The notes beneath the pieces were generated by a model. It saw only the letters and a list, made by a program, of their open reading frames with translations. It ran no database searches and was not told the DNA's origin. Position numbers and translations under genes: made by a program. 64,000 nucleotides of DNA from Escherichia coli (GTDB lineage Bacteria > Pseudomonadota > Gammaproteobacteria > Enterobacterales > Enterobacteriaceae). Each line of letters opens with the position of its first letter. The stretch's first letter is position 1. Shown piece after piece: positions 33,476 through 53,665 of the stretch. Location of the stretch: assembly GCF_011045215.1 (NCBI RefSeq), contig NZ_CP049201.1. The stretch is one strand, 5' to 3'.

Positions 33476-33596
33476 CCGTTGTGCGGGGAGTAATCCCCGC
33501 ATATCCGGTTGTCAGGTCAGGATGGTAAGGCACCTGCTTTACACTTTCGCCCGCGGTCAGTGATGGCTGCGGGCGAATCGTACCAGATGTTGTCAA

Positions 33597-34226: not shown

Positions 34227-34249
34227 ATTCGAGACTGATGACAAACGCA

Positions 34250-34355
34250 AAACTGCCTGATGCGCTACGCTTATCAGGCCTACATGGTCCTGCAATATAT
34301 TGAATTGGCAAGATTTTTGTAGGCCGGATAAGGCGTTCACGCCGCATCCGGCATG
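34250..34355. repeat. REP/BIME palindromic elements between entD and fepA
   Basis: gcctgatgcgctacgcttatcaggcctaca and tgtaggccggataaggcgttcacgccgcatccggca are canonical E. coli REP units. Confidence 0.85.
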
Positions 34356-34391
34356 AACGACGCGCACTTTGTCAACAATCTGACGTTAGCA

Positions 34392-36632
34392 TCAGAAGTG
34401 AGTGTTTACGCTCATATACCACGTACGTCCCGGCTCGTTATAGGTATACGCCCCGGCACCGGCGATATAGTTGGCCCCTGCCAAATCGCCCGTGGTCTGG
34501 GCATTACCCGCACGCCACAAACGTTTGTCGAACAGATTGTCCACGCCGCCGGTCAGACTGACATTCTTCGTCACATCCCACGTCGCGCTCAGCCCAACAA
34601 TGCTGTAAGGACTAATTTCTTTGGTTTCCGGTCCAACCGCTGGCTGACCTTTATAGTTGTACTTCTTCGGCTGCTGCTTACCGTACCAGGTGAAGGTCGT
34701 TTGCATCGACAAATCTTCTCGTGCCTGCCAGCTCAGCGTTGAGTTCAACGTATACTCCGGGATGATCGACAAACGGTCGCCCGTGGTTTTGTTTTCACTC
34801 TTCAGCATATAAGTGATGTTATTAGTCCACATCACCGTTTCGCTAACCGGTACGTTTAACGATCCTTCCAGACCTTCAACCACCGCTTTCGGCACGTTAT
34901 CCCACTGATAGAGATCGGTGCCGACTGCGTTTTGCCCTACAGCAACATAGCCTGCTTCAATCTTATTGCGATAATCGTTACGGAACCAGGTGATGCCCGC
35001 CAGCCAGCCGTCGCGTTTGAACTCCAGACCAATCTCTTTGTTGATGCTGGTTTCTGCTTTCAGGTCATCGTTACCTTGCAGATAGCAGCCGCCCGCGCTG
35101 GCATAGCAGCCCTGACCTTTACTGTAGAGAATGTAGTTCGGGTTAGTCTGGTACAGGCTCGGCGCTTTATAGGCGCGGGCAATGCCCATTTTCAGCGTGA
35201 AGTCATCGCCTAAACCTTGCGATATGTTCAGCGCCGGGCTCCAGTTATTGCCGACAATACTGTGATGATCGAAACGCAGCCCCGGCGTTACGATGGTGCT
35301 GTCAGTCAGCTCCATGTTGTTTTCGGCAAACAGCGAGAAAATTTCTGCTTTTGAATACGGGCTACGGTCGGTGGCACTCACGCCATCAATAGCGCCACCG
35401 GTATTCGTTCCGGTCAGTGCCTGGGTGTTGGAACTTAAGTCCTTCATCCGTTGCTGATTCCACTCCGTACCCAGCGTCAGCGTCTGGTTAACGAGGAAAT
35501 CAATCGGCAGGTTAACTTCGCTGTGCAGCATCACGTCATCAAGATCGATATCGACGAAATCCTGTGTCGCTTTTTCGTTAAATTTCCCTTCGGTACCGCC
35601 CGCCAGACCTTCCGGAATACGCGAGTTACGGGTGTGTTCGTACTGCACCCAGTTGCTGGTGGTCACGCCGTTATCCCAGCCACCGTTCCAGGTCAGCGAG
35701 TAGTTCTGGCGATACAGGCGGTTGGTTTCATCGCCATATTTCGAGCGAGTGTAAGCGTCAGAGTTGGTGTTCTGGGTATCGCCCGCATACAGGTTACCCT
35801 GGCGGCTGTAACCCGCTTCCAGTTCCAGCGATTGCAATGGCGCGAAGTCCCAGCGCACCACGCCATTAATATCTTTGTTGATCACCCCTTCGCGCCCGGC
35901 TGGTAACGTCGTGGCATACGTTCCGGCACGCGCGGACTGATGACCCTGGTTGATATCCCACGCGTCAGCCTGGGTTTTGTCGAGGTTGCCATACAAGCGG
36001 AAGCTGAATTCGTCGCCCAGCGGACCGGTCAGGCTGAAGTTGGTGCGTTTGGTGGCACCTTCCTCTTTATGTTCTGGCGCATTGAAATATGCGTCCCAGG
36101 AGCCGTGCCACTCGCCGCTGCCTTTTTTGGTAATGATGTTAACCACGCCGCCCGCCGCGCCGTTGCCATAACGCGCAGCTGCCGGACCACGCAGAACTTC
36201 AATACGTTCAATCATTTCAGGTGGCACCCAGGAGGTATCACCACGGGTATCGCGCTCGCCACGCCAGCCCTGACGCACCGAGTTACGGCTGCTTACCGGC
36301 TTGCCGTCAATCAAAATCAGCGTGTTTTCCGGACCCATACCGCGAATATCAATCTGTCGGTTATTCCCACGCTGACCACTGGTGGAGTTACCGGTCAGGT
36401 TAACGCCTGGCATGGTACGGATGATCTCCGACACATCGCGGGCAACGGGGTTTTTGCGGATTTCATCTGCGGTGATGGTCGAAACGCCAGGCGCCTGTAA
36501 GTTCTGCTCGGCGGCGGTAACGACAATAGTATCGTCATGTGAAACAGGAGTATCGGTCGGCTCTTGTGCCTGCGCTACCCCATAAATCCCCAGATTGACC
36601 AACAAGGCCAGGGAATGAATCTTCTTGTTCAT
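34392..36632 (-). CDS. fepA: TonB-dependent ferric-enterobactin outer-membrane receptor FepA
   Basis: 746-aa product from MNKKIHSLALLVNLGIYGVAQAQEPTDTPVSHDDTIVVTAAEQ...; TonB box DTIVVTA; C-terminal ...YMSVNTHF. Confidence 0.95.
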   Translation of the reverse strand: MNKKIHSLALLVNLGIYGVAQAQEPTDTPVSHDDTIVVTAAEQNLQAPGVSTITADEIRKNPVARDVSEIIRTMPGVNLTGNSTSGQRGNNRQIDIRGMGPENTLILIDGKPVSSRNSVRQGWRGERDTRGDTSWVPPEMIERIEVLRGPAAARYGNGAAGGVVNIITKKGSGEWHGSWDAYFNAPEHKEEGATKRTNFSLTGPLGDEFSFRLYGNLDKTQADAWDINQGHQSARAGTYATTLPAGREGVINKDINGVVRWDFAPLQSLELEAGYSRQGNLYAGDTQNTNSDAYTRSKYGDETNRLYRQNYSLTWNGGWDNGVTTSNWVQYEHTRNSRIPEGLAGGTEGKFNEKATQDFVDIDLDDVMLHSEVNLPIDFLVNQTLTLGTEWNQQRMKDLSSNTQALTGTNTGGAIDGVSATDRSPYSKAEIFSLFAENNMELTDSTIVTPGLRFDHHSIVGNNWSPALNISQGLGDDFTLKMGIARAYKAPSLYQTNPNYILYSKGQGCYASAGGCYLQGNDDLKAETSINKEIGLEFKRDGWLAGITWFRNDYRNKIEAGYVAVGQNAVGTDLYQWDNVPKAVVEGLEGSLNVPVSETVMWTNNITYMLKSENKTTGDRLSIIPEYTLNSTLSWQAREDLSMQTTFTWYGKQQPKKYNYKGQPAVGPETKEISPYSIVGLSATWDVTKNVSLTGGVDNLFDKRLWRAGNAQTTGDLAGANYIAGAGAYTYNEPGRTWYMSVNTHF

Positions 36633-36798
36633 TGTTTTATTCCTGCATTTTTGCCACGAATTGCAACTGTCGGGCATGGTCGTCATCAACACGACGCATC
36701 CCGCTACCGCGAAAACCTTTGATCCTGAAAGACACGCAGTGCAGTTGGTTAATTAATGTCCGCGCTTCCCACGGCGCGCCATTACGCTATTGCAAATG

Positions 36799-36827
36799 CA
36801 AATAGTTATCAATAATATTATCAATAT
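36799..36827. promoter_or_regulatory. Fur box(es) in the divergent fepA / fes-ybdZ-entF promoter region
   Basis: aatagttatcaataatattatcaatat resembles the Fur consensus GATAATGATAATCATTATC. Confidence 0.7.
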
Positions 36828-36874
36828 ATTTCTGCAATCAATGAAAAATTGCACAGTAAACATGGGGTTATGGT

Positions 36875-38077
36875 GTGACGGCGTTAAAAGTAGGAAGTGA
36901 GAGCTGGTGGCAGTCGAAACATGGCCCGGAATGGCAGCGTCTGAATGACGAAATGTTTGAGGTCACTTTCTGGTGGCGTGATCCCCAAGGTTCTGAAGAA
37001 TACTCGACGATAAAGCGCGTATGGATCTACATCACTGGTGTGACCGATCATCATCAGAACAGCCAGCCCCAGTCGATGCAGCGAATTGCAGGTACTGATG
37101 TCTGGCAGTGGACGACACAACTCAATGCCAACTGGCGCGGCAGCTACTGCTTTATTCCCACCGAACGCGATGACATTTTTTCTGCACCATCCCCCGATCG
37201 CCTCGAATTACGTGAAGGCTGGCGAAAACTATTACCCCAGGCAATAGCCGATCCGCTGAATCCACAAAGCTGGAAAGGCGGGCGAGGGCACGCTGTTTCT
37301 GCACTCGAAATGCCGCAAGCGCCTCTGCAACCGGGATGGGATTGTCCGCAAGCGCCAGAAATACCAGCCAAAGAAATTATCTGGAAAAGTGAACGGTTGA
37401 AAAATTCACGTCGTGTATGGATTTTTACCACCGGCGATGTAACAGCAGAAGAACGCCCGCTGGCAGTTTTGCTCGATGGCGAATTTTGGGCGCAAAGTAT
37501 GCCCGTCTGGCCTGTGCTGACTTCGCTGACCCATCGTCAGCAACTTCCTCCCGCCGTATATGTGTTGATCGACGCTATCGACACCACGCACCGCGCCCAC
37601 GAACTGCCGTGTAATGCGGATTTCTGGCTCGCAGTACAGCAAGAGTTATTACCCCTGGTGAAAGCTATTGCCCCTTTTAGCGATCGCGCCGATCGCACCG
37701 TGGTTGCCGGGCAGAGTTTTGGTGGGCTTTCCGCGCTGTATGCCGGACTGCACTGGCCTGAACGCTTTGGCTGTGTATTAAGCCAGTCAGGATCGTACTG
37801 GTGGCCGCATCGGGGCGGGCAGCAAGAGGGCGTGTTACTTGAAAAGCTAAAAGCTGGTGAAGTTAGCGCCGAAGGTCTACGCATTGTGCTGGAAGCGGGT
37901 ATTCGCGAGCCGATGATCATGCGGGCCAATCAGGCGCTGTATGCGCAATTACACCCTATAAAAGAATCCATTTTCTGGCGTCAGGTTGACGGCGGACATG
38001 ATGCGCTTTGTTGGCGCGGTGGCTTGATGCAGGGGTTAATCGACCTCTGGCAACCACTTTTCCATGACAGGAGTTGA
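36875..38077 (+). CDS. fes: Enterochelin esterase Fes
   Basis: Product MTALKVGSESWWQSKHGPEWQRLNDEMFEVTFWWRDPQGSEEY... from a GTG start; serine-hydrolase motif GQSFGG. Confidence 0.9.
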   Translation: MTALKVGSESWWQSKHGPEWQRLNDEMFEVTFWWRDPQGSEEYSTIKRVWIYITGVTDHHQNSQPQSMQRIAGTDVWQWTTQLNANWRGSYCFIPTERDDIFSAPSPDRLELREGWRKLLPQAIADPLNPQSWKGGRGHAVSALEMPQAPLQPGWDCPQAPEIPAKEIIWKSERLKNSRRVWIFTTGDVTAEERPLAVLLDGEFWAQSMPVWPVLTSLTHRQQLPPAVYVLIDAIDTTHRAHELPCNADFWLAVQQELLPLVKAIAPFSDRADRTVVAGQSFGGLSALYAGLHWPERFGCVLSQSGSYWWPHRGGQQEGVLLEKLKAGEVSAEGLRIVLEAGIREPMIMRANQALYAQLHPIKESIFWRQVDGGHDALCWRGGLMQGLIDLWQPLFHDRS

Positions 38078-38079
38078 AT

Positions 38080-38298
38080 ATGGCATTCAGTAATCCCTTC
38101 GATGATCCACAGGGAGTGTTTTACATTTTGCGCAATGCGCAGGGGCAATTCAGTCTGTGGCCGCAACAATGCGCCTTACCGGCAGGCTGGGACATTGTGT
38201 GTCAGCCGCAGTCACAAGAGTCCTGCCAGCAGTGGCTTGAAGCCCACTGGCGTACTCTGACACCGGCGAATTTCACCCAGTTGCAGGAGGCACAATGA
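38080..38298 (+). CDS. ybdZ: MbtH-like protein YbdZ (NRPS adenylation-domain partner)
   Basis: 72-aa product MAFSNPFDDPQGVFYILRNAQGQFSLWPQQCALPAGWDIVCQPQSQESCQQWLEAHW...; overlaps the fes stop and the entF start. Confidence 0.9.
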   Translation: MAFSNPFDDPQGVFYILRNAQGQFSLWPQQCALPAGWDIVCQPQSQESCQQWLEAHWRTLTPANFTQLQEAQ

Positions 38299-41200
38299 GC
38301 CAGCATTTACCTTTGGTCGCCGCACAGCCCGGCATCTGGATGGCAGAAAAACTGTCGGATTTACCCTCCGCCTGGAGCGTGGCGCATTACGTTGAGTTAA
38401 CCGGAGAGGTTGATGTGCCATTACTGGCCCGCGCGGTGGTTGCCGGATTAGCGCAAGCAGATACGTTGCGGATGCGTTTTACGGAAGATAACGGCGAAGT
38501 CTGGCAATGGGTCGATGATGCGCTGATATTCGAACTGCCAGAAATTATCGACCTGCGAACCAATATTGATCCGCACGGTACTGCGCAGGCATTAATGCAG
38601 GCGGATTTGCAACAAGATTTGCGCGTCGATAGCGGTAAACCACTGGTCTTTCACCAGCTGATACAGGTGGCAGATAACCGCTGGTACTGGTATCAGCGTT
38701 ATCACCATTTACTGGTCGATGGCTTCAGTTTTCCGGCCATTACCCGCCAGATCGCCAACATTTACTGCGCATTGCTGCGTGGCGAACCAACGCCTGCTTC
38801 GCCGTTTACGCCTTTCGCTGATGTAGTGGAAGAGTACCAGCAATACCGCGAAAGCGAAGCCTGGCAGCGTGATGCGGCATTCTGGGTGGAACAGCGTCGC
38901 CAACTGCCACCGCCCGCGTCACTTTCTCCGGCACCTTTAGCGGGGCGCAGCGCCTCGGCAGATATTCTGCGCCTGAAACTGGAATTTACCGACGGGGAAT
39001 TCCGCCAGCTGGCTACGCAACTTTCAGGTGTGCAGCGTACCGATTTAGCCCTTGCGCTGGCAGCCTTGTGGCTGGGGCGATTGTGCAATCGCATGGACTA
39101 CGCCGCCGGATTTATCTTTATGCGTCGACTGGGCTCGGCGGCGCTGACGGCTACCGGACCCGTGCTCAACGTTTTGCCGTTGGGTATTCACATTGCGGCA
39201 CAGGAAACGCTGCCGGAACTGGCAACCCGACTGGCAGCACAACTGAAAAAAATGCGTCGTCATCAACGTTACGATGCCGAACAAATTGTCCGTGACAGCG
39301 GGCGAGCGGCAGGTGATGAACCGCTGTTTGGTCCGGTACTCAATATCAAGGTATTTGATTACCAACTGGATATTCCTGGTGTTCAGGCGCAAACCCATAC
39401 CCTGGCAACCGGTCCGGTTAATGACCTTGAACTGGCCCTGTTCCCGGATGAACACGGTGATTTGAGTATTGAGATCCTCGCCAATAAACAGCGTTACGAT
39501 GAGCCAACGTTAATCCAGCATGCTGAACGCCTGAAAATGCTGATTGCCCAGTTCGCCGCGGATCCGGCGCTGTTGTGCGGCGATGTCGATATTATGCTGC
39601 CAGGTGAATATGCGCAGTTGGCGCAGATCAACGCCACTCAGGTTGAGATTCCAGAAACCACGCTTAGCGCGCTGGTGGCAGAACAAGCGGCAAAAACACC
39701 GGATGCTCCGGCGCTGGCAGATGCGCGTTACCAGTTCAGCTATCGGGAAATGCGCGAGCAGGTGGTGGCGCTGGCGAATCTGCTGCGTGAGCACGGCGTT
39801 AAACCAGGGGACAGCGTGGCGGTGGCATTACCGCGCTCGGTCTTTTTGACCCTGGCGCTACATGCGATTGTTGAAGCAGGTGCGGCCTGGCTACCGCTGG
39901 ATACCGGTTATCCGGACGATCGCCTGAAAATGATGCTGGAAGATGCGCGCCCGTCGCTGTTAATCACCACCGACGATCAACTGCCGCGCTTTGCCGATAT
40001 TTCCGGTTTACCCCGCCTTTGCTACAACGCCCCGCTTACCCCGCAGGGCAGCGCGCCGCTGCAACTTTCGAAGCCGCACCACACGGCTTATATCATCTTT
40101 ACCTCTGGCTCCACTGGCAGGCCAAAAGGGGTAATGGTCGGGCAGACGGCTATCGTTAACCGTCTGTTGTGGATGCAAAATCATTATCCACTTACAGGTG
40201 AAGATGTCGTTGCCCAAAAAACGCCGTGCAGTTTTGATGTCTCGGTGTGGGAGTTTTTCTGGCCGTTTATTGCCGGGGCTAAACTAGTGATGGCTGAACC
40301 GGAAGCGCACCGCGACCCGCTCGCTATGCAGCAATTCTTTGCCGAATATGGCGTAACGACTACGCACTTTGTGCCGTCGATGCTGGCGGCATTTGTTGCA
40401 TCGCTGACGCCGCAAACCGCTCGCCAGAGTTGCGCGACGTTGAAACAGGTTTTCTGTAGTGGTGAGGCCTTACCGGCTGATTTATGCCGCGAATGGCAAC
40501 AGTTAACCAGCGTGCCGTTGCATAATCTATATGGCCCGACGGAAGCGGCGGTAGATGTCAGCTGGTATCCGGCTTTTGGCGAGGAACTGGCACAGGTGCG
40601 CGGCAGCAGTGTGCCGATTGGTTATCCGGTGTGGAATACGGGCCTGCGCATTCTCGATGCGATGATGCATCCGGTGCCGCCGGGTGTGGCGGGAGATCTC
40701 TATCTCACCGGTATTCAACTGGCGCAGGGGTATCTTGGACGACCCGATCTGACCGCCAGCCGCTTTATTGCCGATCCTTTTGTCCCTGGTGAACGGATGT
40801 ACCGTACCGGAGACGTTGCCCGCTGGCTGGATAACGGCGCGGTGGAGTACCTCGGGCGCAGTGACGATCAGCTAAAAATTCGCGGGCAGCGTATTGAACT
40901 GGGCGAAATCGATCGCGTGATGCAGGCGCTGCCGGATGTCGAACAAGCCGTTACCCACGCCTGTGTGATTAACCTGGCGGCAGCCACCGGTGGTGATGCG
41001 CGTCAGTTGGTGGGCTATCTGGTGTCGCAATCAGGTCTGCCGTTGGATACCAGCGCATTACAGGCACAGCTTCGCGAAACATTGCCGCCGCATATGGTGC
41101 CGGTCGTTCTGCTGCAACTTCCACAGTTACCTCTTAGCGCCAACGGCAAGCTGGATCGCAAAGCCTTACCGTTGCCTGAACTTAAGGCACAAACGCCGGG

Positions 41201-42176
41201 GCGTGCGCCGAAAGCGGGCAGTGAAACGATTATCGCTGCGGCATTCGCGTCGTTGCTGGGTTGTGACGTGCAGGATGCCGATGCTGATTTCTTCGCGCTT
41301 GGCGGTCATTCGCTACTGGCAATGAAACTGGCAGCGCAGTTAAGTCGGCAGTTTGCCCGTCAGGTGACGCCGGGGCAGGTGATGGTTGCGTCAACCGTCG
41401 CCAAACTGGCAACGATTATTGATGGTGAAGAGGACAGCTCCCGGCGCATGGGATTCGAAACCATTCTGCCGTTGCGTGAAGGTAATGGCCCGACGCTGTT
41501 TTGTTTCCATCCGGCATCCGGTTTTGCCTGGCAGTTTAGCGTGCTCTCGCGTTATATCGATCCACAATGGTCGATTATCGGCATTCAGTCGCCGCGCCCC
41601 AATGGCCCCATGCATACCGCGGCAAATCTGGATGAAGTCTGTGAAGCGCATCTGGCAACGTTACTTGAACAACAACCGCACGGCCCTTATTACCTGCTGG
41701 GGTATTCCCTTGGCGGTACGCTGGCGCAGGGTATTGCGGCGCGGCTGCGTGCCCGTGGCGAACAGGTGGCATTTCTTGGCTTGCTGGATACCTGGCCGCC
41801 AGAAACGCAAAACTGGCAGGAAAAAGAAGCTAATGGTCTGGACCCGGAAGTGCTGGCGGAGATTAACCGCGAGCGCGAGGCCTTCCTGGCGGCACAGCAG
41901 GGAAGTACTTCAACGGAGTTGTTTACCACCATTGAAGGCAACTACGCTGATGCTGTGCGCCTGCTGACGACTGCTCATAGCGTACCGTTTGACGGTAAAG
42001 CGACGTTGTTTGTTGCTGAACGCACGCTTCAGGAAGGTATGAGTCCTGAACGCGCCTGGTCGCCGTGGATTGCGGAGCTGGATATCTATCGTCAGGATTG
42101 TGCGCATGTGGATATTATCTCTCCAGGGGCATTTGAAAAAATTGGGCCGATTATTCGCGCAACGCTAAACAGATAA
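38295..42176 (+). CDS. entF: Enterobactin synthase component F (NRPS: C-A-PCP-TE, serine-activating)
   Basis: 1293-aa product MSQHLPLVAAQPGIWMAEKLSDLPSAWSVAHYVELTGEVD...; core motifs HHLLVDG (C), FTSGSTGRPKG and YRTGD (A), FFALGGHSL (PCP), GYSLGG (TE). Confidence 0.95.
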   Translation: MSQHLPLVAAQPGIWMAEKLSDLPSAWSVAHYVELTGEVDVPLLARAVVAGLAQADTLRMRFTEDNGEVWQWVDDALIFELPEIIDLRTNIDPHGTAQALMQADLQQDLRVDSGKPLVFHQLIQVADNRWYWYQRYHHLLVDGFSFPAITRQIANIYCALLRGEPTPASPFTPFADVVEEYQQYRESEAWQRDAAFWVEQRRQLPPPASLSPAPLAGRSASADILRLKLEFTDGEFRQLATQLSGVQRTDLALALAALWLGRLCNRMDYAAGFIFMRRLGSAALTATGPVLNVLPLGIHIAAQETLPELATRLAAQLKKMRRHQRYDAEQIVRDSGRAAGDEPLFGPVLNIKVFDYQLDIPGVQAQTHTLATGPVNDLELALFPDEHGDLSIEILANKQRYDEPTLIQHAERLKMLIAQFAADPALLCGDVDIMLPGEYAQLAQINATQVEIPETTLSALVAEQAAKTPDAPALADARYQFSYREMREQVVALANLLREHGVKPGDSVAVALPRSVFLTLALHAIVEAGAAWLPLDTGYPDDRLKMMLEDARPSLLITTDDQLPRFADISGLPRLCYNAPLTPQGSAPLQLSKPHHTAYIIFTSGSTGRPKGVMVGQTAIVNRLLWMQNHYPLTGEDVVAQKTPCSFDVSVWEFFWPFIAGAKLVMAEPEAHRDPLAMQQFFAEYGVTTTHFVPSMLAAFVASLTPQTARQSCATLKQVFCSGEALPADLCREWQQLTSVPLHNLYGPTEAAVDVSWYPAFGEELAQVRGSSVPIGYPVWNTGLRILDAMMHPVPPGVAGDLYLTGIQLAQGYLGRPDLTASRFIADPFVPGERMYRTGDVARWLDNGAVEYLGRSDDQLKIRGQRIELGEIDRVMQALPDVEQAVTHACVINLAAATGGDARQLVGYLVSQSGLPLDTSALQAQLRETLPPHMVPVVLLQLPQLPLSANGKLDRKALPLPELKAQTPGRAPKAGSETIIAAAFASLLGCDVQDADADFFALGGHSLLAMKLAAQLSRQFARQVTPGQVMVASTVAKLATIIDGEEDSSRRMGFETILPLREGNGPTLFCFHPASGFAWQFSVLSRYIDPQWSIIGIQSPRPNGPMHTAANLDEVCEAHLATLLEQQPHGPYYLLGYSLGGTLAQGIAARLRARGEQVAFLGLLDTWPPETQNWQEKEANGLDPEVLAEINREREAFLAAQQGSTSTELFTTIEGNYADAVRLLTTAHSVPFDGKATLFVAERTLQEGMSPERAWSPWIAELDIYRQDCAHVDIISPGAFEKIGPIIRATLNR

Positions 42177-42193
42177 ATTAACATTATCTATAA

Positions 42194-42232
42194 ACCCATA
42201 ATTGCAGGAAATAATTATGGGTTTATCATTTA
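42194..42232 (+). terminator. Rho-independent terminator candidate after entF
   Basis: Stem aaacccataatt / aattatgggttt followed by a T-rich tract. Confidence 0.6.
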
Positions 42233-42391
42233 TATAATTTATAAGTTTGCTGGTTCTTTTTCTTAAATAGAGTGAATGTTGCATTCAGTGGAATGAATTT
42301 ACAAACTTCAGCTTCGGATAATTCTCACCAGCTGGTAAAGTGAGCGCCGTGGAGATTTCCCCCTATTGGACTCATTTTCAGGTTATACCCC

Positions 42392-43525
42392 ATGTCATCA
42401 CTGAATATTAAACAGGGAAGTGACGCTCATTTTCCCGATTATCCTCTGGCGTCGCCCAGTAATAATGAAATTGATTTACTTAATCTAATCTCAGTTTTAT
42501 GGCGGGCCAAAAAAACGGTCATGGCGGTCGTTTTTGCGTTTGCCTGCGCAGGCTTGCTGATCTCTTTCATCCTGCCGCAAAAATGGACCAGCGCGGCGGT
42601 TGTCACGCCTCCAGAACCTGTTCAGTGGCAAGAGTTGGAGAAAACATTCACTAAGCTTCGTGTGCTGGATCTGGATATCAAAATTGATCGTACAGAAGCA
42701 TTTAACCTGTTTATCAAGAAGTTTCAGTCGGTTAGCTTGCTGGAAGAGTACCTGCGTTCATCACCTTATGTGATGGACCAATTAAAAGAGGCGAAAATCG
42801 ACGAACTGGATTTGCATCGCGCAATTGTCGCATTGAGCGAAAAAATGAAAGCGGTTGATGACAATGCCAGTAAGAAAAAAGATGAACCGTCACTGTATAC
42901 CTCCTGGACGCTAAGTTTTACCGCGCCAACCAGTGAAGAGGCGCAGACCGTTTTGTGCGGGTATATCGATTATATCTCTGCGTTGGTGGTGAAAGAGTCG
43001 CTAGAAAACGTCCGTAATAAGCTGGAGATCAAAACCCAGTTTGAAAAAGAAAAACTGGCTCAGGATCGCATTAAAACGAAAAATCAACTTGATGCAAACA
43101 TTCAGCGCCTCAATTATTCACTCGACATTGCCAACGCGGCAGGAATTAAAAAGCCCGTATACAGTAATGGTCAGGCCGTTAAAGATGACCCCGATTTCTC
43201 TATTTCTCTCGGCGCAGACGGTATTGAACGCAAACTGGAAATTGAAAAAGCGGTTACTGACGTTGCGGAACTGAATGGTGAATTACGTAATCGTCAGTAT
43301 CTTGTCGAGCAATTAACAAAAGCAAATGTCAACGATGTGAATTTTACGCCGTTTAAATATCAGTTAAGTCCGTCATTGCCAGTGAAAAAAGACGGTCCGG
43401 GTAAGGCGATTATTGTGATCCTTTCCGCGTTGATCGGCGGGATGGTGGCTTGTGGTGGTGTGCTGTTGCGTCATGCGATGGCATCCAGAAAACAGGATGC
43501 CATGATGGCAGACCACTTAGTTTAA
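42392..43525 (+). CDS. fepE: Wzz-family polysaccharide co-polymerase FepE (very-long O-antigen chain-length regulator)
   Basis: 377-aa product MSSLNIKQGSDAHFPDYPLASPSNNEIDLLNLISVLWRAKKTVMAVVFAFACAGLLISF... Confidence 0.9.
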   Translation: MSSLNIKQGSDAHFPDYPLASPSNNEIDLLNLISVLWRAKKTVMAVVFAFACAGLLISFILPQKWTSAAVVTPPEPVQWQELEKTFTKLRVLDLDIKIDRTEAFNLFIKKFQSVSLLEEYLRSSPYVMDQLKEAKIDELDLHRAIVALSEKMKAVDDNASKKKDEPSLYTSWTLSFTAPTSEEAQTVLCGYIDYISALVVKESLENVRNKLEIKTQFEKEKLAQDRIKTKNQLDANIQRLNYSLDIANAAGIKKPVYSNGQAVKDDPDFSISLGADGIERKLEIEKAVTDVAELNGELRNRQYLVEQLTKANVNDVNFTPFKYQLSPSLPVKKDGPGKAIIVILSALIGGMVACGGVLLRHAMASRKQDAMMADHLV

Positions 43526-44337
43526 ATCTTTGCGGTTGAAGGTGCCGTTCGTCCGAGCGGCACCACAAGCGGCGTTCCGGCTACCGGATCGTCAATAATC
43601 ATGCAGCGTAGACCATAAATGCGCTCGATCAATTCAGCAGTGATAATCTCCTTCGGCGCTCCCTGAGCAACAATTTTCCCTTCCCGCAACGCAATCAAAT
43701 GGCTGGCGTAACGACAGGCCTGATTAAGATCGTGCAGCACTGCCGCCAGGGTATAGCCTTTCTCACGGTTCAGTTCGCTTAACAGTTCCAGGAGATCAAT
43801 CTGATGACTGATATCCAGCCAGGTCGTGGGTTCATCGAGCAGCATAATTGCCGTTTCCTGGGCCAGCACCATCGCGATCCACGTTCGCTGGCGTTGTCCG
43901 CCAGAAAGGGTATCCACGCTTTGATCTGCCAGATGAGTTATTCCCGTGGCCTGCATCGCTTTCGTTACCGCTTCTTCATCCTCTTTGCGCCAGCGGGTAA
44001 ACAGCGGTTGATGCGGGTAACGCCCACGCGCCACCAGCTCCTGCACGGTGATATCGCCCGGCGTGGTAGCATTTTGCGCCAAAAGACCAATCCGGCGTGC
44101 AACTTCTTTACTGGCGTAATGTTGAATGTGCTCGCCATCCAGCCAGACATGCCCATGAGCAGGCGTCATCAGGCGGCTTAAGGTACGCAGTAACGTGGAT
44201 TTACCGCAGCCATTTGGCCCGATAATTGCCGTGAAGTGACCATCAGGTATTTCTACAGTCAGATTTTCCGCAACGGTATATTTGCCATATCCCAGGGTTA
44301 ACTGTTCGCCGCGCAAACGGGCTACAGATTCGGTCAT
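43522..44337 (-). CDS. fepC: Ferric-enterobactin ABC transporter ATPase FepC
   Basis: 271-aa product from MTESVARLRGEQLTLGYGKYTVAENLTVEIPDGHFTAIIGPNGCGKSTLL...; Walker A and LSGGQRQR signature. The track ORF extends 47 codons upstream. Confidence 0.9.
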   Translation of the reverse strand: MTESVARLRGEQLTLGYGKYTVAENLTVEIPDGHFTAIIGPNGCGKSTLLRTLSRLMTPAHGHVWLDGEHIQHYASKEVARRIGLLAQNATTPGDITVQELVARGRYPHQPLFTRWRKEDEEAVTKAMQATGITHLADQSVDTLSGGQRQRTWIAMVLAQETAIMLLDEPTTWLDISHQIDLLELLSELNREKGYTLAAVLHDLNQACRYASHLIALREGKIVAQGAPKEIITAELIERIYGLRCMIIDDPVAGTPLVVPLGRTAPSTAKI

Positions 44338-45326
44338 TTTTTGCGAGACTCCTGAATTAACAAGACGATAAGGTAAATACCGCCGAGGCTGACGGTAACG
44401 ACGCCAACCGGAAGTTGATACGGCATAAACAGTTGTTGGGCGCAGAGATCGGCCGCCAGCAGTAACAACGCTCCGCACAGCGCCGCCTGGGTCAGCCCCC
44501 AGCGAGCGGTGCCGCTAATGCGTCGGGCAATGTGCGGCGCGACTAAAGCAATAAAGGAAATCGGCCCGGCAAGCGCCGTTGCCGCAGCGGTAAGCACCAC
44601 TGCAACCAGCATCATTAACAGACGCGAACGTTCGACGCTGACGCCCAGCGCGCAGGCGGTATCATCGCCCATCTCCAGCAAGCGCATTCGCCGCACCAGC
44701 AAGGCGGCGGCAATTAGCATCAATATAATGATGGGTGCGGAAGGCGAAGTTTTTGCCCACGTCAGGCCATTGAGCGATCCGGCATTCCACAAACCCGCTG
44801 TTAGCGCCGTTTCTAAAGACGCTTTCAGCAACAGCCAGGTATTAAAGGCCACCAGCATGGCGCGAACGCCGATACCGATAATAATCAACCGAAAGGTGTC
44901 GATGCCGTTGCGCCAGGCGAGCAGCCAGACCAGCAGCGAAGTGACAATGCCGCCCACCATTGCTGACAGCGCGATAGCCGTCAGGTCCTGACCAAACAGC
45001 ACCATCGCCACCAGCACGCCGCTCCACGCCCCGGTGTTAAAGCCCATTACGTCAGGGCTACCGAGCGGGTTACGCATCAGCGACTGAAAAATTGCGCCGC
45101 TGACGCCCAACGCCGCGCCAATCAACAGCGCCATCAGCACGCGTGGTAAACGCCATTCGGTGACTACCATCGTCATACTGCGCGGCGCATCGCCCATCAG
45201 CGCGGCGAATACCTGCGAGGTTTCCAGCGTGACGGCACCGCTGCGTAATCCCCAGATACCTGCAACCACACAGGCGGAAATCAGCAGCAAACAGGTGATG
45301 AGTAATCGGCGAGAGACGTAAATCAT
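44334..45326 (-). CDS. fepG: Ferric-enterobactin ABC transporter permease FepG
   Basis: 330-aa product MIYVSRRLLITCLLLISACVVAGIWGLRSGAVTLETSQVFAAL... Confidence 0.9.
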   Translation of the reverse strand: MIYVSRRLLITCLLLISACVVAGIWGLRSGAVTLETSQVFAALMGDAPRSMTMVVTEWRLPRVLMALLIGAALGVSGAIFQSLMRNPLGSPDVMGFNTGAWSGVLVAMVLFGQDLTAIALSAMVGGIVTSLLVWLLAWRNGIDTFRLIIIGIGVRAMLVAFNTWLLLKASLETALTAGLWNAGSLNGLTWAKTSPSAPIIILMLIAAALLVRRMRLLEMGDDTACALGVSVERSRLLMMLVAVVLTAAATALAGPISFIALVAPHIARRISGTARWGLTQAALCGALLLLAADLCAQQLFMPYQLPVGVVTVSLGGIYLIVLLIQESRKK

Positions 45327-46327
45327 GCACCACCTCGCGTTTTACGTCGCACGAGGAAGATTAGCACCGGTGCACCAATAAACGCACTGACCACAGAAAC
45401 GCGCAGCTCGCCGGGCACAATCACCCGCCCGATGATATCGGCAAACAGCAGCAGGGCAGGGGTAGCAAGTAGCGTGACGGGCAGCGACCAGCGATGATCG
45501 GCACCCACCAGCCAACGCGCCATATGCGGCATCATCAGGCCAATAAAGGCAATCGGGCCAACTACTGCCGTCGCACTACCACAAAGCACGGTAATCGCCA
45601 GCAGACCAATCAACTGTGTGCGCGCCACGCGACTGCCCAGCGCCGTCGCGGTGTCGCTGCCGAGGCTCAAACTGTTCAGCGCGCGGCTCAGTAATAGCGC
45701 AGTTGCTCCGGCGATCAGCACCGGGATCAGCACCACTTTTAAGGTATGTAGATTGCGAATATCCAGCGAACCGGCTTGCCAGAGACGCAGTTGATCGTAG
45801 ACGTCAGGATTAAGCAGGGCGATGCCGCTGGTCAGCCCTTCAAGCACCGCCGCCAGCGCCACGCCCGCCAGGGTTAAACGCACCGGACTTAACTGCCCGC
45901 CGCCCTGGCTGCCGGTAAAGGCAACAATCAACGAGGCCACCAGCGCCCCGGCGAAGGCCATCGCCAGTTGTTCCTGTGCGGAAGAGTAACCAAACAGCGC
46001 CGCACCCAGCACAATGGCAAAGCTGGCTCCGGCGTTCACGCCAAGCAAGCCGGGGTCGGCAAGTGGGTTTCGGGTGAGGGTTTGCATTAACGCCCCGGCA
46101 AGGCCAAGCGCGCCGCCTGCCAGTAAACCGGCAAGGGTACGCGGCAGCCGCGCGTCGAGCACGATGGTGCAGTCGGCGCTCTGGCAGGTGCCGGAGAAGG
46201 CCTCCAGCACTACGGAAGCGGGGAGTGATTTTGCCCCAATGAGCAGACTTAATGCCGTCGCGATAATCAGTAATAACAGCAATCCGGGCACGGCAATGGC
46301 GCGTGTCACGGCAACAGAACCAGACAT
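45323..46327 (-). CDS. fepD: Ferric-enterobactin ABC transporter permease FepD
   Basis: Product MSGSVAVTRAIAVPGLLLLLIIATALSLLIGAKSLPAS... with GGAAG upstream of this ATG; an in-frame ATG 4 codons upstream (46339) is the alternative start. Confidence 0.85.
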   Translation of the reverse strand: MSGSVAVTRAIAVPGLLLLLIIATALSLLIGAKSLPASVVLEAFSGTCQSADCTIVLDARLPRTLAGLLAGGALGLAGALMQTLTRNPLADPGLLGVNAGASFAIVLGAALFGYSSAQEQLAMAFAGALVASLIVAFTGSQGGGQLSPVRLTLAGVALAAVLEGLTSGIALLNPDVYDQLRLWQAGSLDIRNLHTLKVVLIPVLIAGATALLLSRALNSLSLGSDTATALGSRVARTQLIGLLAITVLCGSATAVVGPIAFIGLMMPHMARWLVGADHRWSLPVTLLATPALLLFADIIGRVIVPGELRVSVVSAFIGAPVLIFLVRRKTRGGA

Positions 46328-46339
46328 ACGAACTTCCAT

Positions 46340-46368
46340 GATAATGAAATTAATTATCGTTATCGATC
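46340..46368. promoter_or_regulatory. Fur box in the divergent fepDGC / entS promoter region
   Basis: gataatgaaattaattatcgttatcgat immediately upstream of the fepD start. Confidence 0.7.
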
Positions 46369-46437
46369 TTATTTGGATATGTTAGCATGTGCAGCCTAAG
46401 AATAGGTATTTAAAATATTTGATGGCAAGGCATTGTA

Positions 46438-47688
46438 ATGAATAAACAATCCTGGCTGCTTAACCTCAGCCTGTTGAAAACGCACCCGGCGTTTCGCGCA
46501 GTATTCCTCGCTCGTTTCATCTCTATTGTTTCTCTGGGTTTGCTCGGCGTCGCGGTGCCGGTGCAGATCCAGATGATGACACATTCCACCTGGCAGGTGG
46601 GGCTTTCGGTGACGCTGACCGGCGGCGCGATGTTTGTTGGCCTGATGGTCGGCGGTGTGCTGGCGGATCGCTATGAACGCAAAAAAGTGATTTTGCTGGC
46701 GCGCGGTACCTGTGGCATTGGCTTCATTGGATTGTGCCTTAATGCACTGCTGCCTGAACCGTCATTGCTGGCAATCTATTTACTTGGTTTATGGGATGGT
46801 TTTTTCGCATCGCTTGGCGTTACGGCGCTACTGGCGGCGACACCTGCACTGGTAGGGCGTGAAAACTTAATGCAGGCCGGGGCGATCACCATGTTGACCG
46901 TGCGTCTGGGGTCGGTGATTTCGCCCATGATTGGCGGTTTATTGCTGGCGACCGGTGGCGTAGCCTGGAACTACGGGCTGGCGGCGGCGGGCACGTTTAT
47001 TACCTTGCTACCGTTGTTAAGCCTTCCGGCGTTGCCACCGCCACCGCAGCCGCGTGAGCATCCGTTGAAATCATTACTGGCAGGATTTCGTTTTCTGCTC
47101 GCCAGCCCGCTGGTAGGAGGGATTGCGCTGCTGGGTGGTTTATTGACGATGGCGAGCGCGGTGCGGGTACTGTATCCGGCGCTGGCTGACAACTGGCAGA
47201 TGTCAGCGGCACAGATTGGTTTTCTCTACGCGGCGATCCCGCTCGGCGCGGCTATTGGCGCGTTAACCAGCGGGAAGCTGGCGCATAGCGCGCGACCAGG
47301 GTTATTGATGCTGCTCTCCACGCTGGGATCGTTCCTCGCCATTGGTCTGTTTGGCCTGATGCCGATGTGGATTTTAGGCGTGGTTTGTCTGGCGCTGTTC
47401 GGCTGGTTGAGTGCGGTCAGCTCGTTGCTGCAATACACAATGCTGCAAACGCAAACCCCGGAAGCGATGTTAGGGCGGATTAACGGTTTGTGGACGGCAC
47501 AAAACGTGACGGGCGATGCCATAGGCGCGGCGCTGCTGGGTGGTTTGGGAGCGATGATGACACCGGTTGCTTCCGCAAGCGCGAGCGGTTTTGGTTTATT
47601 GATTATCGGCGTGTTGTTATTGCTGGTGCTGGTGGAGTTGCGACGTTTTCGCCAGACGCCGCCGCAGGTGACAGCGTCTGACGGTTAA
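46438..47688 (+). CDS. entS: Enterobactin exporter EntS (MFS)
   Basis: 416-aa product [50 protein letters not shown]... Confidence 0.95.
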
Positions 47689-47691
47689 TGC

Positions 47692-48648
47692 TTAAAACAG
47701 CGCCTTAAGTCGTTCCAGCACTTGCATGGCGCTGTAGTAATCCAGACGGAACGTCTCGGTTCCCAGCGCATAAACCTGCTTGTTTTGTACTGCAGGCAGG
47801 TGCGCGAGCAGCGGATTAGCATAAATAGCATCGGCATCTTTCTGATCACCGGCGAACAGGAATAGTGACTCGCCATTTAACCCTGCAGCCAGATTTTCCC
47901 CACCAAGCTGAATGATGTCATGGCGTTTACCCTGGCTTTGGCTGGCATTTAACCCTGCGGGTAACTTCGCCAGCGTAAAGCCGAGTTGTTCCAGCATCTG
48001 CCCTTGTGCTGATTCCGGCGTCCAGAGATTGGCACTGTGTGCAGCGGCAGTATAGACAATGGCAGTGACCGGCTGCGGCGGTAATTTGATTTGCTCTTTC
48101 GCCGCCGCCAGTTGCTTATCAAACTGCGCAATCCGCTCTGCCGCTTGTTTCTCATGCCCGGTAATTTCGCCAAGTTGCGTTAACAGCGCCTGCCAGCTTT
48201 TGTCGTCGTAATTGATGATTAATGTCGGGGCGATGGTGGAAAGCTGATCATACAGCGCCAGCGCCGAATCCCCGCCGGTTGCGCTAATTAAAATCAGATC
48301 CGGCATTTGCGCGGCAACGGCTTCGGCGCTCGGTTCGCCGATATAGAGCCGTTGCAGTTTGCGTTCTTTCGCCACCTTGCTCCACTGGCGTAAAAAGCCC
48401 TGGTCATCCGCGACGCGGTTATTCGGCGTGGTCGCGCCGCTGGCGATCACCGGAGCATCAATCGCCAGCAGTGAGCCGGTCAGGGTGACGCTGGTGGAAA
48501 CAATACGCTGCGGCTGGCTTTCCAGGGTATGAGTGCCACGGCTGTCAGTAATCTGACGCGGCCAGTCGGCGGCCTGAACTGCGGCTATTCCTGAAAACAA
48601 AAGTCCTGTTAATAGAAGGGCATTGCGGTAGAGCGGGGCGAGTCTCAC
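47692..48648 (-). CDS. fepB: Periplasmic ferric-enterobactin binding protein FepB
   Basis: 318-aa product [46 protein letters not shown]... Confidence 0.95.
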
Positions 48649-48788
48649 AAATCAGCTTCCTGTTATTAATGAAGTTAATGCTTCTCATTTTCATTATAAC
48701 CACAACCAGATGCAACCCCGAGTTGCAGATTGCGTTACCTCAAGAGTTGACATAGTGCGCGTTTGCTTTTAGGTTAGCGACCGAAAAT

Positions 48789-48809
48789 ATAAATGATAAT
48801 CATTATTAA
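48789..48809. promoter_or_regulatory. Fur box in the divergent fepB / entCEBAH promoter region
   Basis: aaatgataatcattatt is a near-consensus Fur box about 30 nt upstream of entC; a second weaker match lies near 48680-48705. Confidence 0.8.
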
Positions 48810-48836
48810 AGCCTTTATCATTTTGTGGAGGATGAT

Positions 48837-50012
48837 ATGGATACGTCACTGGCTGAGGAAGTACAGCAGACCATGGCAACACTTGCGCCCAATCGCTTTT
48901 TCTTTATGTCGCCGTACCGCAGTTTTACGACGTCAGGATGTTTCGCCCGCTTCGATGAACCGGCTGTGAACGGGGATTCGCCCGACAGTCCCTTCCAGCA
49001 AAAACTCGCCGCGCTGTTTGCCGATGCCAAAGCGCAGGGCATCAAAAATCCGGTGATGGTCGGGGCGATTCCTTTCGATCCACGTCAGCCTTCGTCGCTG
49101 TATATTCCTGAATCCTGGCAGTCGTTCTCCCGTCAGGAAAAACAAGCTTCCGCACGCCGTTTCACCCGCAGCCAGTCGCTGAACGTGGTGGAACGCCAGG
49201 CAATTCCGGAGCAAACCACGTTTGAACAGATGGTTGCCCGCGCCGCCGCACTTACCGCCACGCCGCAGGTCGACAAAGTGGTGTTGTCACGGTTGATTGA
49301 TATCACCACTGACGCCGCCATTGATAGTGGCGTATTGCTGGAACGGTTGATTGCGCAAAACCCGGTTAGTTACAACTTCCATGTCCCGCTGGCAGATGGT
49401 GGCGTTCTGCTGGGGGCCAGCCCGGAACTGCTGCTACGTAAAGACGGTGAGCGTTTTAGCTCCATTCCGTTAGCCGGTTCCGCACGTCGTCAGCCGGATG
49501 AAGTGCTCGATCGCGAAGCGGGTAATCGTCTGCTGGCGTCAGAAAAAGATCGCCATGAACATGAACTGGTGACTCAGGCGATGAAAGAGGTACTGCGCGA
49601 ACGCAGTAGTGAGTTACACGTTCCCTCCTCTCCACAATTGATTACCACGCCGACGCTGTGGCATCTCGCAACTCCCTTTGAAGGTAAAGCGAATTCGCAA
49701 GAAAACGCACTGACTCTGGCCTGTCTGCTGCATCCGACCCCCGCGCTGAGCGGTTTCCCACATCAGGCCGCGACCCAGGTTATTGCTGAACTGGAGCCGT
49801 TCGACCGCGAACTGTTTGGCGGCATTGTGGGTTGGTGTGACAGCGAAGGTAACGGCGAATGGGTGGTGACCATCCGCTGCGCGAAGCTGCGGGAAAATCA
49901 GGTGCGTCTGTTTGCCGGAGCGGGGATTGTGCCTGCGTCGTCACCGTTGGGTGAGTGGCGCGAAACAGGCGTCAAACTTTCTACCATGTTGAACGTTTTT
50001 GGATTGCATTAA
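48837..50012 (+). CDS. entC: Isochorismate synthase EntC
   Basis: 391-aa product from [39 protein letters not shown]... (the track ORF starts 4 codons upstream). Confidence 0.95.
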
Positions 50013-50021
50013 GGAGCGAGG

Positions 50022-51632
50022 ATGAGCATTCCATTCACCCGCTGGCCGGAAGAGTTTGCCCGTCGCTATCGGGAAAAAGGCTACTGGCAGGATTTGCCGC
50101 TGACCGACATTCTGACTTGCCACGCTGCGAGTGACAGCATCGCGGTTATCGACGGCGAGCGACAGTTGAGTTACCGGGAGCTGAATCAGGCGGCGGATAA
50201 CCTCGCGTGTAGTTTACGCCGTCAGGGCATTAAACCTGGTGAAACCGCGCTGGTACAACTGGGTAACGTCGCTGAACTTTACATTACCTTTTTCGCACTG
50301 CTGAAACTGGGCGTTGCGCCGGTGCTGGCGCTGTTCAGCCATCAGCGTAGTGAACTGAACGCCTATGCCAGCCAGATTGAACCGGTGTTACTGATTGCCG
50401 ATCGCCAACATGCGCTGTTTAGCGGGGATGATTTCCTCAATACTTTCGTCACAGAACATTCCTCCATTCGCGTGGTGCAACTGCTCAACGACAGCGGTGA
50501 GCATAACTTGCAGGATGCGATTAACCATCCGGCTGAGGATTTTACTGCCACACCGTCACCTGCTGATGAAGTGGCCTATTTCCAGCTTTCCGGCGGCACC
50601 ACCGGCACACCGAAACTGATCCCGCGCACTCATAACGACTACTACTACAGCGTGCGTCGTAGCGTCGAGATTTGTCAGTTCACACAACAGACACGCTACC
50701 TGTGCGCGATCCCGGCGGCTCATAACTACGCCATGAGTTCGCCAGGATCGCTGGGCGTCTTTCTTGCCGGAGGAACGGTTGTTCTGGCGGCCGATCCCAG
50801 CGCCACGCTCTGTTTCCCATTGATTGAAAAACATCAGGTTAACGTTACCGCGCTGGTGCCACCCGCAGTCAGCCTGTGGTTGCAGGCGCTGACCGAAGGC
50901 GAAAGCCGGGCGCAGCTTGTCTCGCTGAAACTGTTACAGGTCGGCGGCGCACGTCTTTCTGCCACCCTTGCGGCGCGTATTCCCGCTGAGATTGGCTGCC
51001 AGTTGCAGCAGGTGTTTGGTATGGCGGAAGGGCTGGTGAACTATACCCGTCTTGATGATAGCGCGGAGAAAATTATCCATACCCAGGGTTACCCAATGTG
51101 TCCGGATGACGAAGTATGGGTTGCCGATGCCGAAGGAAATCCACTGCCGCAAGGGGAAGTCGGACGACTGATGACGCGCGGGCCGTATACCTTCCGTGGC
51201 TATTACAAAAGCCCGCAGCACAATGCCAGCGCCTTTGATGCCAATGGTTTTTACTGTTCCGGCGATCTGATCTCTATTGATCCAGAGGGTTACATCACCG
51301 TGCAGGGGCGCGAGAAAGATCAGATCAACCGTGGCGGCGAGAAGATCGCTGCCGAAGAGATCGAAAACCTGTTACTGCGCCATCCGGCGGTGATCTACGC
51401 CGCACTGGTCAGTATGGAAGATGAGCTGATGGGCGAAAAAAGCTGTGCTTATCTGGTGGTAAAAGAGCCGCTTCGCGCGGTGCAGGTGCGTCGTTTCCTG
51501 CGTGAACAGGGTATTGCCGAATTTAAATTACCGGATCGCGTGGAGTGTGTGGATTCACTTCCGCTGACGGCGGTCGGGAAAGTCGATAAAAAACAATTAC
51601 GTCAGTGGCTGGCGTCACGCGCATCAGCCTGA
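50022..51632 (+). CDS. entE: 2,3-dihydroxybenzoate-AMP ligase EntE
   Basis: 536-aa product [31 protein letters not shown]...; adenylation motifs SGGTTGTPK and YCSGD. Confidence 0.95.
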
Positions 51633-51645
51633 AGGAGAGAACACG

Positions 51646-52503: not shown

Positions 52504-53665
<1,162 letters not shown>

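Follow-up and report, generated by a model that had tools for sequence, protein, structure and literature searches.

Does the enterobactin locus found in a stretch of 64,000 nucleotides of Escherichia coli DNA (hereafter the window) represent the complete and intact system of the species, and how many Fur operators would control it? In K-12, EntC, EntB and EntA make 2,3-dihydroxybenzoate (DHB), and the cyclic DHB-serine trimer is built by EntE, the aryl-carrier domain of EntB, and EntF. Priming of the carrier domains falls to EntD and proofreading to EntH, and YbdZ acts as a helper of EntF. The siderophore leaves the cell via EntS, and the ferric complex returns via the TonB-dependent receptor FepA, FepB and FepDGC and is hydrolysed by Fes, leading to iron release. 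The K-12 literature describes six transcription units that depart from three spacers, namely fepA-entD and fes-ybdZ-entF(-fepE), fepDGC and entS, and fepB and entCEBAH, with entD and fepE as presumed members. The architecture of the locus has been summarised elsewhere (PMC4911079). As outlined below, positions 33597-53665 of the window almost certainly constitute the canonical chromosomal enterobactin locus of E. coli, which would belong to the core backbone and be subject to textbook Fur control. Both this locus and the sites of its Fur switch are already known, and the analysis is no discovery; its significance is one of annotation only, this being conserved core chromosome that needs no further attention.

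Gene content and integrity of the locus

All 16 K-12 ent/fep/fes genes, from entD to entH (b0583 to b0597 in MG1655), are present in the window in K-12 order and orientation, and each has its K-12 length, with unchanged start and stop codons and no gaps, frameshifts or internal stops. Identity to K-12 ranges gene by gene from 95.9 to 99.3% at the nucleotide level and from 94 to 100% at the amino-acid level, and the aligned blocks diverge by 2.1-2.4% of nucleotides. The DNA is collinear with K-12 across 33486-55952, a single 183-bp indel excepted, and the arrangement is shared by 5412 of the 5426 complete genomes of the species; the annotation of the nearest genome likewise supports the canonical gene order. 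The complete, intact system that the preliminary description had claimed is thus borne out by the gap-free mapping of every gene on the K-12 alignment, and its reading of the locus as backbone fits both the sequence and the literature. The span that it gave, 36633-48836, covers the middle of the system, but entD/fepA and entCEBAH fall outside it. At gathering thresholds, no Rfam RNA family was found in 36633-48836.

Curated NCBIfam equivalog or family models are passed by 14 of the proteins. EntD, Fes, EntC, EntE, EntA, EntH, EntS, FepB, FepC, FepD and FepG pass equivalog models, and FepA passes a family model. EntB and YbdZ have no NCBIfam model above cutoff and were assigned instead by their identity to K-12 (285/285 and 68/72 residues, respectively). 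On the minus strand, entD (33597-34217) encodes the phosphopantetheinyl transferase (206 aa, 201 as in K-12; EntD equivalog 430.9 bits, cutoff 169) and fepA (34392-36632) the TonB-dependent ferric-enterobactin receptor of the outer membrane (746 aa, 741 as in K-12; FepA-family model 1281 bits), in which the TonB box DTIVVTA is kept. The plus-strand genes that follow are fes (36875-38077), which starts with GTG and encodes the enterochelin esterase (400 aa, 394 as in K-12; equivalog 709 bits), ybdZ (38080-38298), encoding the MbtH-like partner of EntF (72 aa, 94% identity), and entF (38295-42176). EntF is a nonribosomal peptide synthetase (NRPS) of 1293 aa, of which 1262 are as in K-12, and scores 2797.6 bits with the EntF equivalog model (cutoff 2400). 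Its C-A-T-TE module, for which the Pfam domains Condensation, AMP-binding, PP-binding and Thioesterase are found, keeps the motifs HHLLVDG, TSGSTGRPK, GGHSL and GYSLG, including those of the catalytic His, the phosphopantetheine Ser and the thioesterase Ser.

The next plus-strand gene, fepE (42392-43525; 377 aa, 372 as in K-12), had been counted among the expected ent/fep genes. It is indeed present and intact, but by the NCBIfam equivalog Wzz(fepE), which scores 625.1 bits over residues 1-368 (cutoff 300), its product is a Wzz-family regulator of O-antigen chain length, and fepE is a resident of the cluster without an enterobactin function. Pfam MbtH and Pfam Wzz are recorded for the ybdZ and fepE products, respectively, on a contig with an identical EntF allele, identity there being shown for EntF only.

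The inner-membrane ABC importer is encoded on the minus strand by fepD-fepG-fepC (43522-46327), whose products of 334, 330 and 271 aa share 332, 329 and 267 residues with K-12, respectively, and all pass their equivalog cutoffs; FepC keeps its Walker A and LSGG motifs. The exporter of the major facilitator superfamily (MFS), EntS, is encoded on the plus strand at 46438-47688 (416 aa, 414 as in K-12; equivalog 715 bits), and the periplasmic ferric-enterobactin binding protein FepB on the minus strand at 47692-48648, with a GTG start (318 aa, 315 as in K-12; equivalog 519.5 bits). The plus-strand genes entC-entE-entB-entA-entH (48837-53665) account for DHB synthesis and activation, the aryl carrier and the proofreading thioesterase, and their products match K-12 at 391/391, 532/536, 285/285, 245/248 and 137/137 residues, respectively. 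In EntB the phosphopantetheine site GLDSV, which contains the aryl-carrier Ser, is kept.

The ent genes are inactive in some lineages of Shigella, and here too an intact appearance could conceal functional decay or silencing of the locus, such as by missense inactivation. In line with such decay, the complete RefSeq E. coli genomes reach at most 99.0% identity over 20 kb, the exact EntF allele is rare, being found on only two contigs, and 31 of the 82 nonsynonymous differences from K-12, any of which may or may not affect function, lie in EntF, including a patch at residues 567-574. However, the comparison with K-12 revealed no stops, frameshifts or IS elements in the locus, every catalytic and transport motif checked (in FepA, FepC, EntF and EntB) is retained, and the entD-fepA, fepA-fes and fepD-entS spacers (526 bp) are without differences from K-12. 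Moreover, the 19 kb of coding sequence have a pN/pS relative to K-12 of 0.076, with values of 0 to 0.20 for individual genes, and the 16-gene set is under strong purifying selection. Decay is therefore a very improbable account of this locus, and an intact enterobactin system is the reading followed here.

Fur operators in the three divergent spacers

In the presence of iron, Fe2+-Fur dimers would polymerise on overlapping sites spaced by 6 bp and occlude promoters or 5' ends, and in its absence the dimers would dissociate, leading to derepression of the whole enterobactin system. Overlapping sites with this spacing typify all footprinted Fur regions of E. coli (Chen 2007, PMC2189734). The window was scanned with a Fur position weight matrix trained on 14 K-12 sites, none of them from ent genes, which makes it independent of the scored locus; leave-one-out scores of the training sites range from 5.5 to 20.5 bits. 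For single sites, the null was the best score per simulated 64-kb window (mean 14.1 bits, 95th percentile 17.4). A cluster score, the sum over four sites at 6-bp spacing, was set against 200 simulated windows, in which the best score per window has a mean of 21.0 and a 95th percentile of 28.7, and against 1000 dinucleotide shuffles per spacer. K-12 DNase footprints were moved to the window by an offset of +777, which was derived here from the gene-relative positions in Table 4 of Chen 2007 (PMC2189734) and agrees with the K-12 matrix matches within 3 bp.

The operators found in this way consist of overlapping sites at 6-bp steps, and their best matrix scores (20.0, 19.5, 19.4, 18.6 and 12.9 bits) lie within the leave-one-out range of known sites. 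The fepA(-entD)/fes(-ybdZ-entF) operator occupies 36783-36830, the equivalent of a K-12 footprint (PMC2189734 Table 3), in a divergent control region whose spacer of 242 bp shows 100% identity with K-12. Sites at 36792, 36798, 36804 and 36810 score 12.5, 12.9, 9.7 and 8.5 bits, respectively, so that even the better boxes (12.5-12.9 bits) fall below the 17.4-bit 95th percentile of the best single null scores. This site is weak as a lone box and highly significant as a cluster; it is convincing only because of its phased arrangement and its identity to footprinted DNA, and a scan can pick it up only through its phased sites taken together, no one box being strong. The fepDGC/entS operator (46340-46370) lies in the divergent fepD/entS spacer, which is 110 bp long and also 100% identical to K-12, and scores 19.4 (46340-46358), 19.5 (46346-46364) and 8.5 bits at 6-bp steps. 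The strongest fepD/entS site of Chen 2007, at -25 from fepD and -86 from entS (PMC2189734), maps to 46352.

The fepB/entC spacer contains two operators. That of entC (entCEBAH), known as Fur box 2, occupies 48783-48831, is identical to the K-12 sequence and equivalent to a K-12 footprint (PMC2189734), and scores 20.0 bits at 48789-48807, flanked by 13.5 bits at -6 and 12.5 bits at +6, then 5.2. That of fepB, Fur box 1 (AAAATGAGAAGCATTATT; PMC5020551), occupies 48668-48698, to which the fepB footprint of K-12 corresponds (PMC2189734), and scores 18.6 bits at 48674-48692. Matrix scores at the equivalent K-12 positions are the same as in the window except at the fepB operator, which scores 19.6 bits in K-12 and has one G/A difference from it, at 48696. 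This difference, which gives TATAAT on the fepB strand, was considered as a special feature and rejected, as it is common to O157:H7, 88-3493 and PapM-32-1 and hence an ordinary polymorphism.

The preliminary description had placed Fur-box-like sequences at about 36799-36827, 46340-46368 and 48789-48809. These three sit within the window equivalents of K-12 footprints (PMC2189734 Tables 3 and 4) and are supported by the matrix scan, with a cluster of 8.5-12.9 bits at 36792-36828, 19.4/19.5 bits at 46340/46346 and 20.0 bits at 48789. Could such sequences match by chance, the intergenic DNA being rich in A+T (57-69% in the spacers)? A simulated 64-kb window does contain about two single sites that score 12-13 bits. 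Yet the cluster scores of entC (51.2), fepD/entS (49.5) and fepA/fes (43.6) are each attained by none of the 200 null windows and none of the 1000 shuffles, and their sequences are identical to footprinted operators (PMC2189734). Furthermore, four of the six window positions that match the 19-bp Fur consensus at 15 or more bases fall in ent/fep spacers (three sites match at 15-16 of 19 bases, fepA/fes at 13 of 19). Chance is accordingly the least probable of the alternatives weighed here, to be put aside with near certainty. The fepB operator has a cluster score of 27.9, a value reached in 11 of 200 null windows, and the top five cluster scores of the 64-kb window are those of the four ent operators, which we retain as genuine candidates for Fur control, and of a known phage nohA-type site. 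A Fur-like site within fepE (42461-42479, 13.0 bits, cluster score 23.9) was rejected as a fifth operator, since it is within the null range and in coding sequence.

Implicit in the preliminary description was a simpler model in which each divergent spacer shares one Fur box, giving three in all. At fepA/fes and at fepD/entS, the overlapping sites between the divergent genes do form just one cluster. The fepB/entC spacer, however, contains two strong sites 115 bp apart (48674-48692 and 48789-48807), which match two distinct K-12 footprints (PMC2189734) and the two non-overlapping Fur boxes, one per direction, described for this spacer in K-12 (PMC5020551). One box per spacer is thus highly unlikely to hold for the locus. 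Of the claim of three Fur-controlled divergent regions, the three spacers stand, but the operators number four, fepB's own (48668-48698) having been missed. Fur scans of the enterobactin locus should expect four operators.

The relation between Fur operators and promoters has been described for K-12 only (PMC5020551), and promoter positions follow the K-12 literature, not a consensus scan. A simple scan of 34000-53950 for the sigma-70 consensus and terminators gave no enrichment, with 11 promoter-like sites against 15.3 expected from shuffles; its candidates over operators, within a total not above chance, are TTGATT-18-TATTAT at 36841-36812 and TCGATA-17-TATCAT at 46366-46338. For this strain, the binding of Fur, the extent of the transcripts and the production of siderophore are predictions made from the DNA.

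The fepB leader and comparison genomes

A palindromic repeat of 183 bp, which K-12 carries in its fepB leader between TAA flanks and at the fepB operator's edge, is missing from the window; nothing else inside the cluster differs structurally from K-12. The empty site in the window is the TAA at 48676-48678, at the fepB-proximal edge of that operator. About half of E. coli, K-12 included, carry the repeat, and the short, repeat-less fepB-entC junction is found in 2355 of 5426 complete genomes (~43%). The repeat folds strongly (-94.7 kcal/mol, z = -4.85). It may be of the GC-rich 'box C' type, which it resembles. In the fepB mRNA the repeat would be preceded by just a few bases, and the empty site would leave a leader of about 30 nt. 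It is conceivable, although we consider it rather doubtful, that the repeat alters how fepB is translated, how stable its mRNA is or how far Fur occupies the operator, so that the two allele classes tune the uptake and synthesis arms differently; if true, K-12-based data on fepB regulation would not be transferable to short-allele strains. A literature search for the repeat in the fepB leader found nothing relevant.

K-12 also differs from the window in carrying IS186B between hokE and entD. The earlier statement that nothing atypical is seen holds relative to E. coli overall but not relative to K-12, from which the window departs in lacking both the 183-bp repeat and the IS186 beside entD, both common natural states.

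As a separate observation, the three perfectly conserved control spacers (526 bp) contrast with synonymous sites, 7.5% of which differ from K-12, and the fepB leader exists in two forms within E. coli. Over 221 aligned bp that comprise the fepB-entC spacer with its flanks, E. coli 88-3493 and PapM-32-1 do not differ from the window, and O157:H7 (Z1626) differs by 1 nt. A 50-mer containing 7 bases peculiar to the window had no exact counterpart among the GTDB representative genomes. At best, these short-allele genomes are only 99.0% identical over a 20-kb query (window 36000-56000). Upstream of entD, PapM-32-1 has two copies of hokE, whereas the window has one.

Gene content and integrity of the enterobactin locus

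The enterobactin locus of the window is ordinary, already known E. coli backbone, an interpretation of the preliminary description that is supported with three small corrections, which concern its span, the existence of a fourth operator and the kind of gene that fepE is. When each gene of the cluster in E. coli K-12 MG1655 (hereafter K-12) was mapped onto the window, all 16 aligned over their full length, without gaps or internal stops and with unchanged start and stop codons, at identities of 95.9–99.3% (nucleotide) and 94–100% (amino acid). The claim of a complete and intact ent/fep set is thus borne out. On the minus strand lie entD (33597–34217) and fepA (34392–36632), followed on the plus strand by fes (36875–38077), ybdZ (38080–38298), entF (38295–42176) and fepE (42392–43525), on the minus strand by fepC (43522–44337), fepG (44334–45326) and fepD (45323–46327), and then by entS (46438–47688, plus), fepB (47692–48648, minus) and the plus-strand genes entC (48837–50012), entE (50022–51632), entB (51646–52503), entA (52503–53249) and entH (53252–53665). 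The system therefore occupies 33597–53665; the span originally assigned to it, 36633–48836, takes in just the middle part, beginning with the fepA/fes spacer and ending with the fepB/entC spacer. FepE had been counted as an enterobactin gene; it is present, but it passes its NCBIfam model as Wzz.

The window is E. coli chromosome; of 5426 complete RefSeq genomes of this species, 5412 match a 20-kb query (36000–56000) across 80% or more of the query. The top match is strain PapM-32-1, in which the genes are annotated in the same order from entD to entH, at 99.0% identity, the highest value among these complete genomes. EntD, FepA, Fes, EntF, FepC, FepG, FepD, EntS, FepB, EntC, EntE, EntA and EntH likewise pass NCBIfam equivalog or family models. 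No NCBIfam model scores above cutoff for EntB, yet this protein is the same as in K-12 at 285 of 285 residues; YbdZ is identical at 68 of 72. Conserved motifs are kept in EntF (HHLLVDG, TSGSTGRPK, GGHSL and GYSLG), EntB (GLDSV), FepA (TonB box) and FepC (Walker A and LSGG). Judged by substitution patterns across the 16 genes (pS = 0.075, pN/pS = 0.076), the divergence from K-12 is natural and under strong purifying selection rather than decay, and by its sequence the locus belongs to the known E. coli enterobactin cluster on all the defining features tested.

Six amino-acid substitutions are clustered at EntF residues 567–574 (39991–40040), in the adenylation domain. A 50-mer of this patch was not found among GTDB representative genomes, and the exact EntF allele occurs on only two contigs of a large contig collection. 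Ahead of entD, the region 33100–33600 contains a single hokE/sok copy (Rfam sok, 33177–33331) and no IS186, whereas K-12 carries IS186B between hokE and entD, and PapM-32-1 has two hokE copies.

Fur operators of the divergent spacers

To avoid circularity, a symmetric 19-bp Fur matrix was built from 14 K-12 sites that are not part of the ent locus (fhuA, fur, gpmA, fiu, tonB, cir, mntH, exbB, bfd, ryhB, sodA, fecA, fecI and fhuF; positions as given in Tables 3 and 4 of Chen et al., 2007, PMC2189734), which score 5.5 to 20.5 bits in leave-one-out. Sites were found at entC (48789–48807; 20.0 bits, with 13.5 at −6 and 12.5 at +6), fepD/entS (46340 and 46346; 19.4 and 19.5 bits), fepB (48674–48692; 18.6 bits) and fepA/fes (36792, 36798, 36804 and 36810; 12.5, 12.9, 9.7 and 8.5 bits). 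Taken one by one, the fepA/fes boxes do not stand out, since the top single score per simulated 64-kb window has a mean of 14.1 bits and a 95th percentile of 17.4 bits. Overlapping sites 6 bp apart are typical of footprinted Fur regions (PMC2189734), and a cluster score summed over four such sites reaches 51.2 for entC, 49.5 for fepD/entS and 43.6 for fepA/fes, values that were never attained, either in 200 simulated windows or in 1000 dinucleotide shuffles per spacer; that of fepB (27.9) is attained in 11 of the 200 windows. Only six window positions agree with the 19-base consensus GATAATGATAATCATTATC in at least 15 bases; four of them are in ent spacers, and the other two belong to a phage site. 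Matrix and plain consensus count thus agree, and the Fur boxes initially proposed do not fall below threshold. A Fur-like site in the 5' end of fepE (42461–42479; 13.0 bits), with the same score and sequence in K-12, was rejected, its cluster score (23.9) being within chance range.

No base differs from K-12 in the fepA-fes spacer (36633–36874, 242 bp), the fepD-entS spacer (46328–46437, 110 bp) or the entC operator. The NC_000913.2 coordinates of Chen et al. (2007) were converted to NC_000913.3 by a +777 offset derived here, which was set by the "-25, -86" of Table 4 for fepD/entS and falls within 3 bp of the K-12 matrix hits. The footprint equivalents are then 36783–36830 (fepA-fes), 48668–48698 (fepB) and 48783–48831 (entC), and 46352 is the centre of the strongest fepD/entS site; each of the three Fur-box intervals first proposed lies inside these equivalents. 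Two separate footprints lie between fepB and entC in K-12 (PMC2189734), described as two non-overlapping Fur boxes, each controlling one direction of transcription (PMC5020551), and there are therefore four operators in three divergent regions. The three Fur-controlled regions had been recognized, but fepB's own operator (48668–48698) had been missed.

The entD-fepA, fepA-fes and fepD-entS spacers show no difference from K-12 in 526 bp, while synonymous sites differ by 7.5% and the entF-fepE spacer (42177–42391) has 18 differences in 215 bp. Such conservation is, at the sequence level, the pattern expected for functional control and leader regions. The fepA-entD spacer (34218–34391, 174 bp), identical to K-12, contains two repetitive extragenic palindrome (REP) units, one coinciding with an Rfam ES036 match (34276–34317, minus strand). 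A possible terminator between entF and fepE is an AT-rich hairpin (42190–42226) that directly follows the stop codon of entF; its stem is 15 bp long, and a T-rich tail comes next.

In the textbook model, Fe2+-Fur on these operators would block transcription of six units, and iron limitation would derepress DHB synthesis (EntC, EntB, EntA), NRPS assembly (EntE, EntB and EntF with EntD, YbdZ and EntH), export by EntS, re-import via FepA, FepB and FepDGC, and iron release by Fes. By analogy with K-12, Fur binding, transcript ends and enterobactin production would be alike in this strain.

Dimorphism of the fepB leader

Compared with K-12, 33486–55952 is collinear and gapless save for 183 extra K-12 bases between fepB and entC, where the spacer measures 374 bp in K-12 and 188 bp in the window (48649–48836). 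The K-12 segment carries imperfect inverted repeats at its ends and a GC-rich palindrome in its interior, folds at −94.7 kcal/mol (z = −4.85), is flanked by TAA and belongs to a repeat family with a median copy number of 14 per E. coli genome. Its insertion point, the TAA at 48676–48678 (the empty site), is at the edge of the fepB operator that faces fepB; the matrix score of this operator is alike in both alleles (18.6 bits in the window, 19.6 in K-12). Judging from promoter spacing, the fepB transcript would start only a few bases before this point; the K-12 leader would therefore be long and structured and that of the window short. The short junction occurs in 2355 of 5426 complete E. coli genomes (~43%) and the K-12-type insert in ~2721 (~50%), and the window's spacer with its flanks (221 bp aligned) is identical to 88-3493 and PapM-32-1 and one base off O157:H7. 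Absence of the repeat is therefore nothing anomalous but one state of a natural dimorphism that is common in the species.

Prophage remnant and other matches

Positions 1–4600 are a lambdoid prophage deletion remnant, with a RusA-like resolvase (144–521), a nohA/Nu1-like terminase small subunit (913–1458), a terminase large subunit (1433–2452) cut after ~323 aa and abutting a tail-J fragment (2365–2823), a tail fibre (2799–4004) and a tail-fibre assembly gene (4004–4585), the 3' end of which is overlapped by an Rfam IS009 match (4347–4545, 227.6 bits). On this side, the best E. coli genomes match only 3836–25000. The strongest Fur-matrix match of the window (668–692; 17.0 and 21.9 bits, 6 bp apart) is located ~233 bp upstream of the nohA-like gene, in the same relative position as the nohA site of Chen et al. 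(2007), which was confirmed by gel shift, with a site upstream of nohB being predicted (Table 4, PMC2189734). At the other end, an Rfam STnc70 match (62658–62751, 43 bits) is barely over its gathering score.
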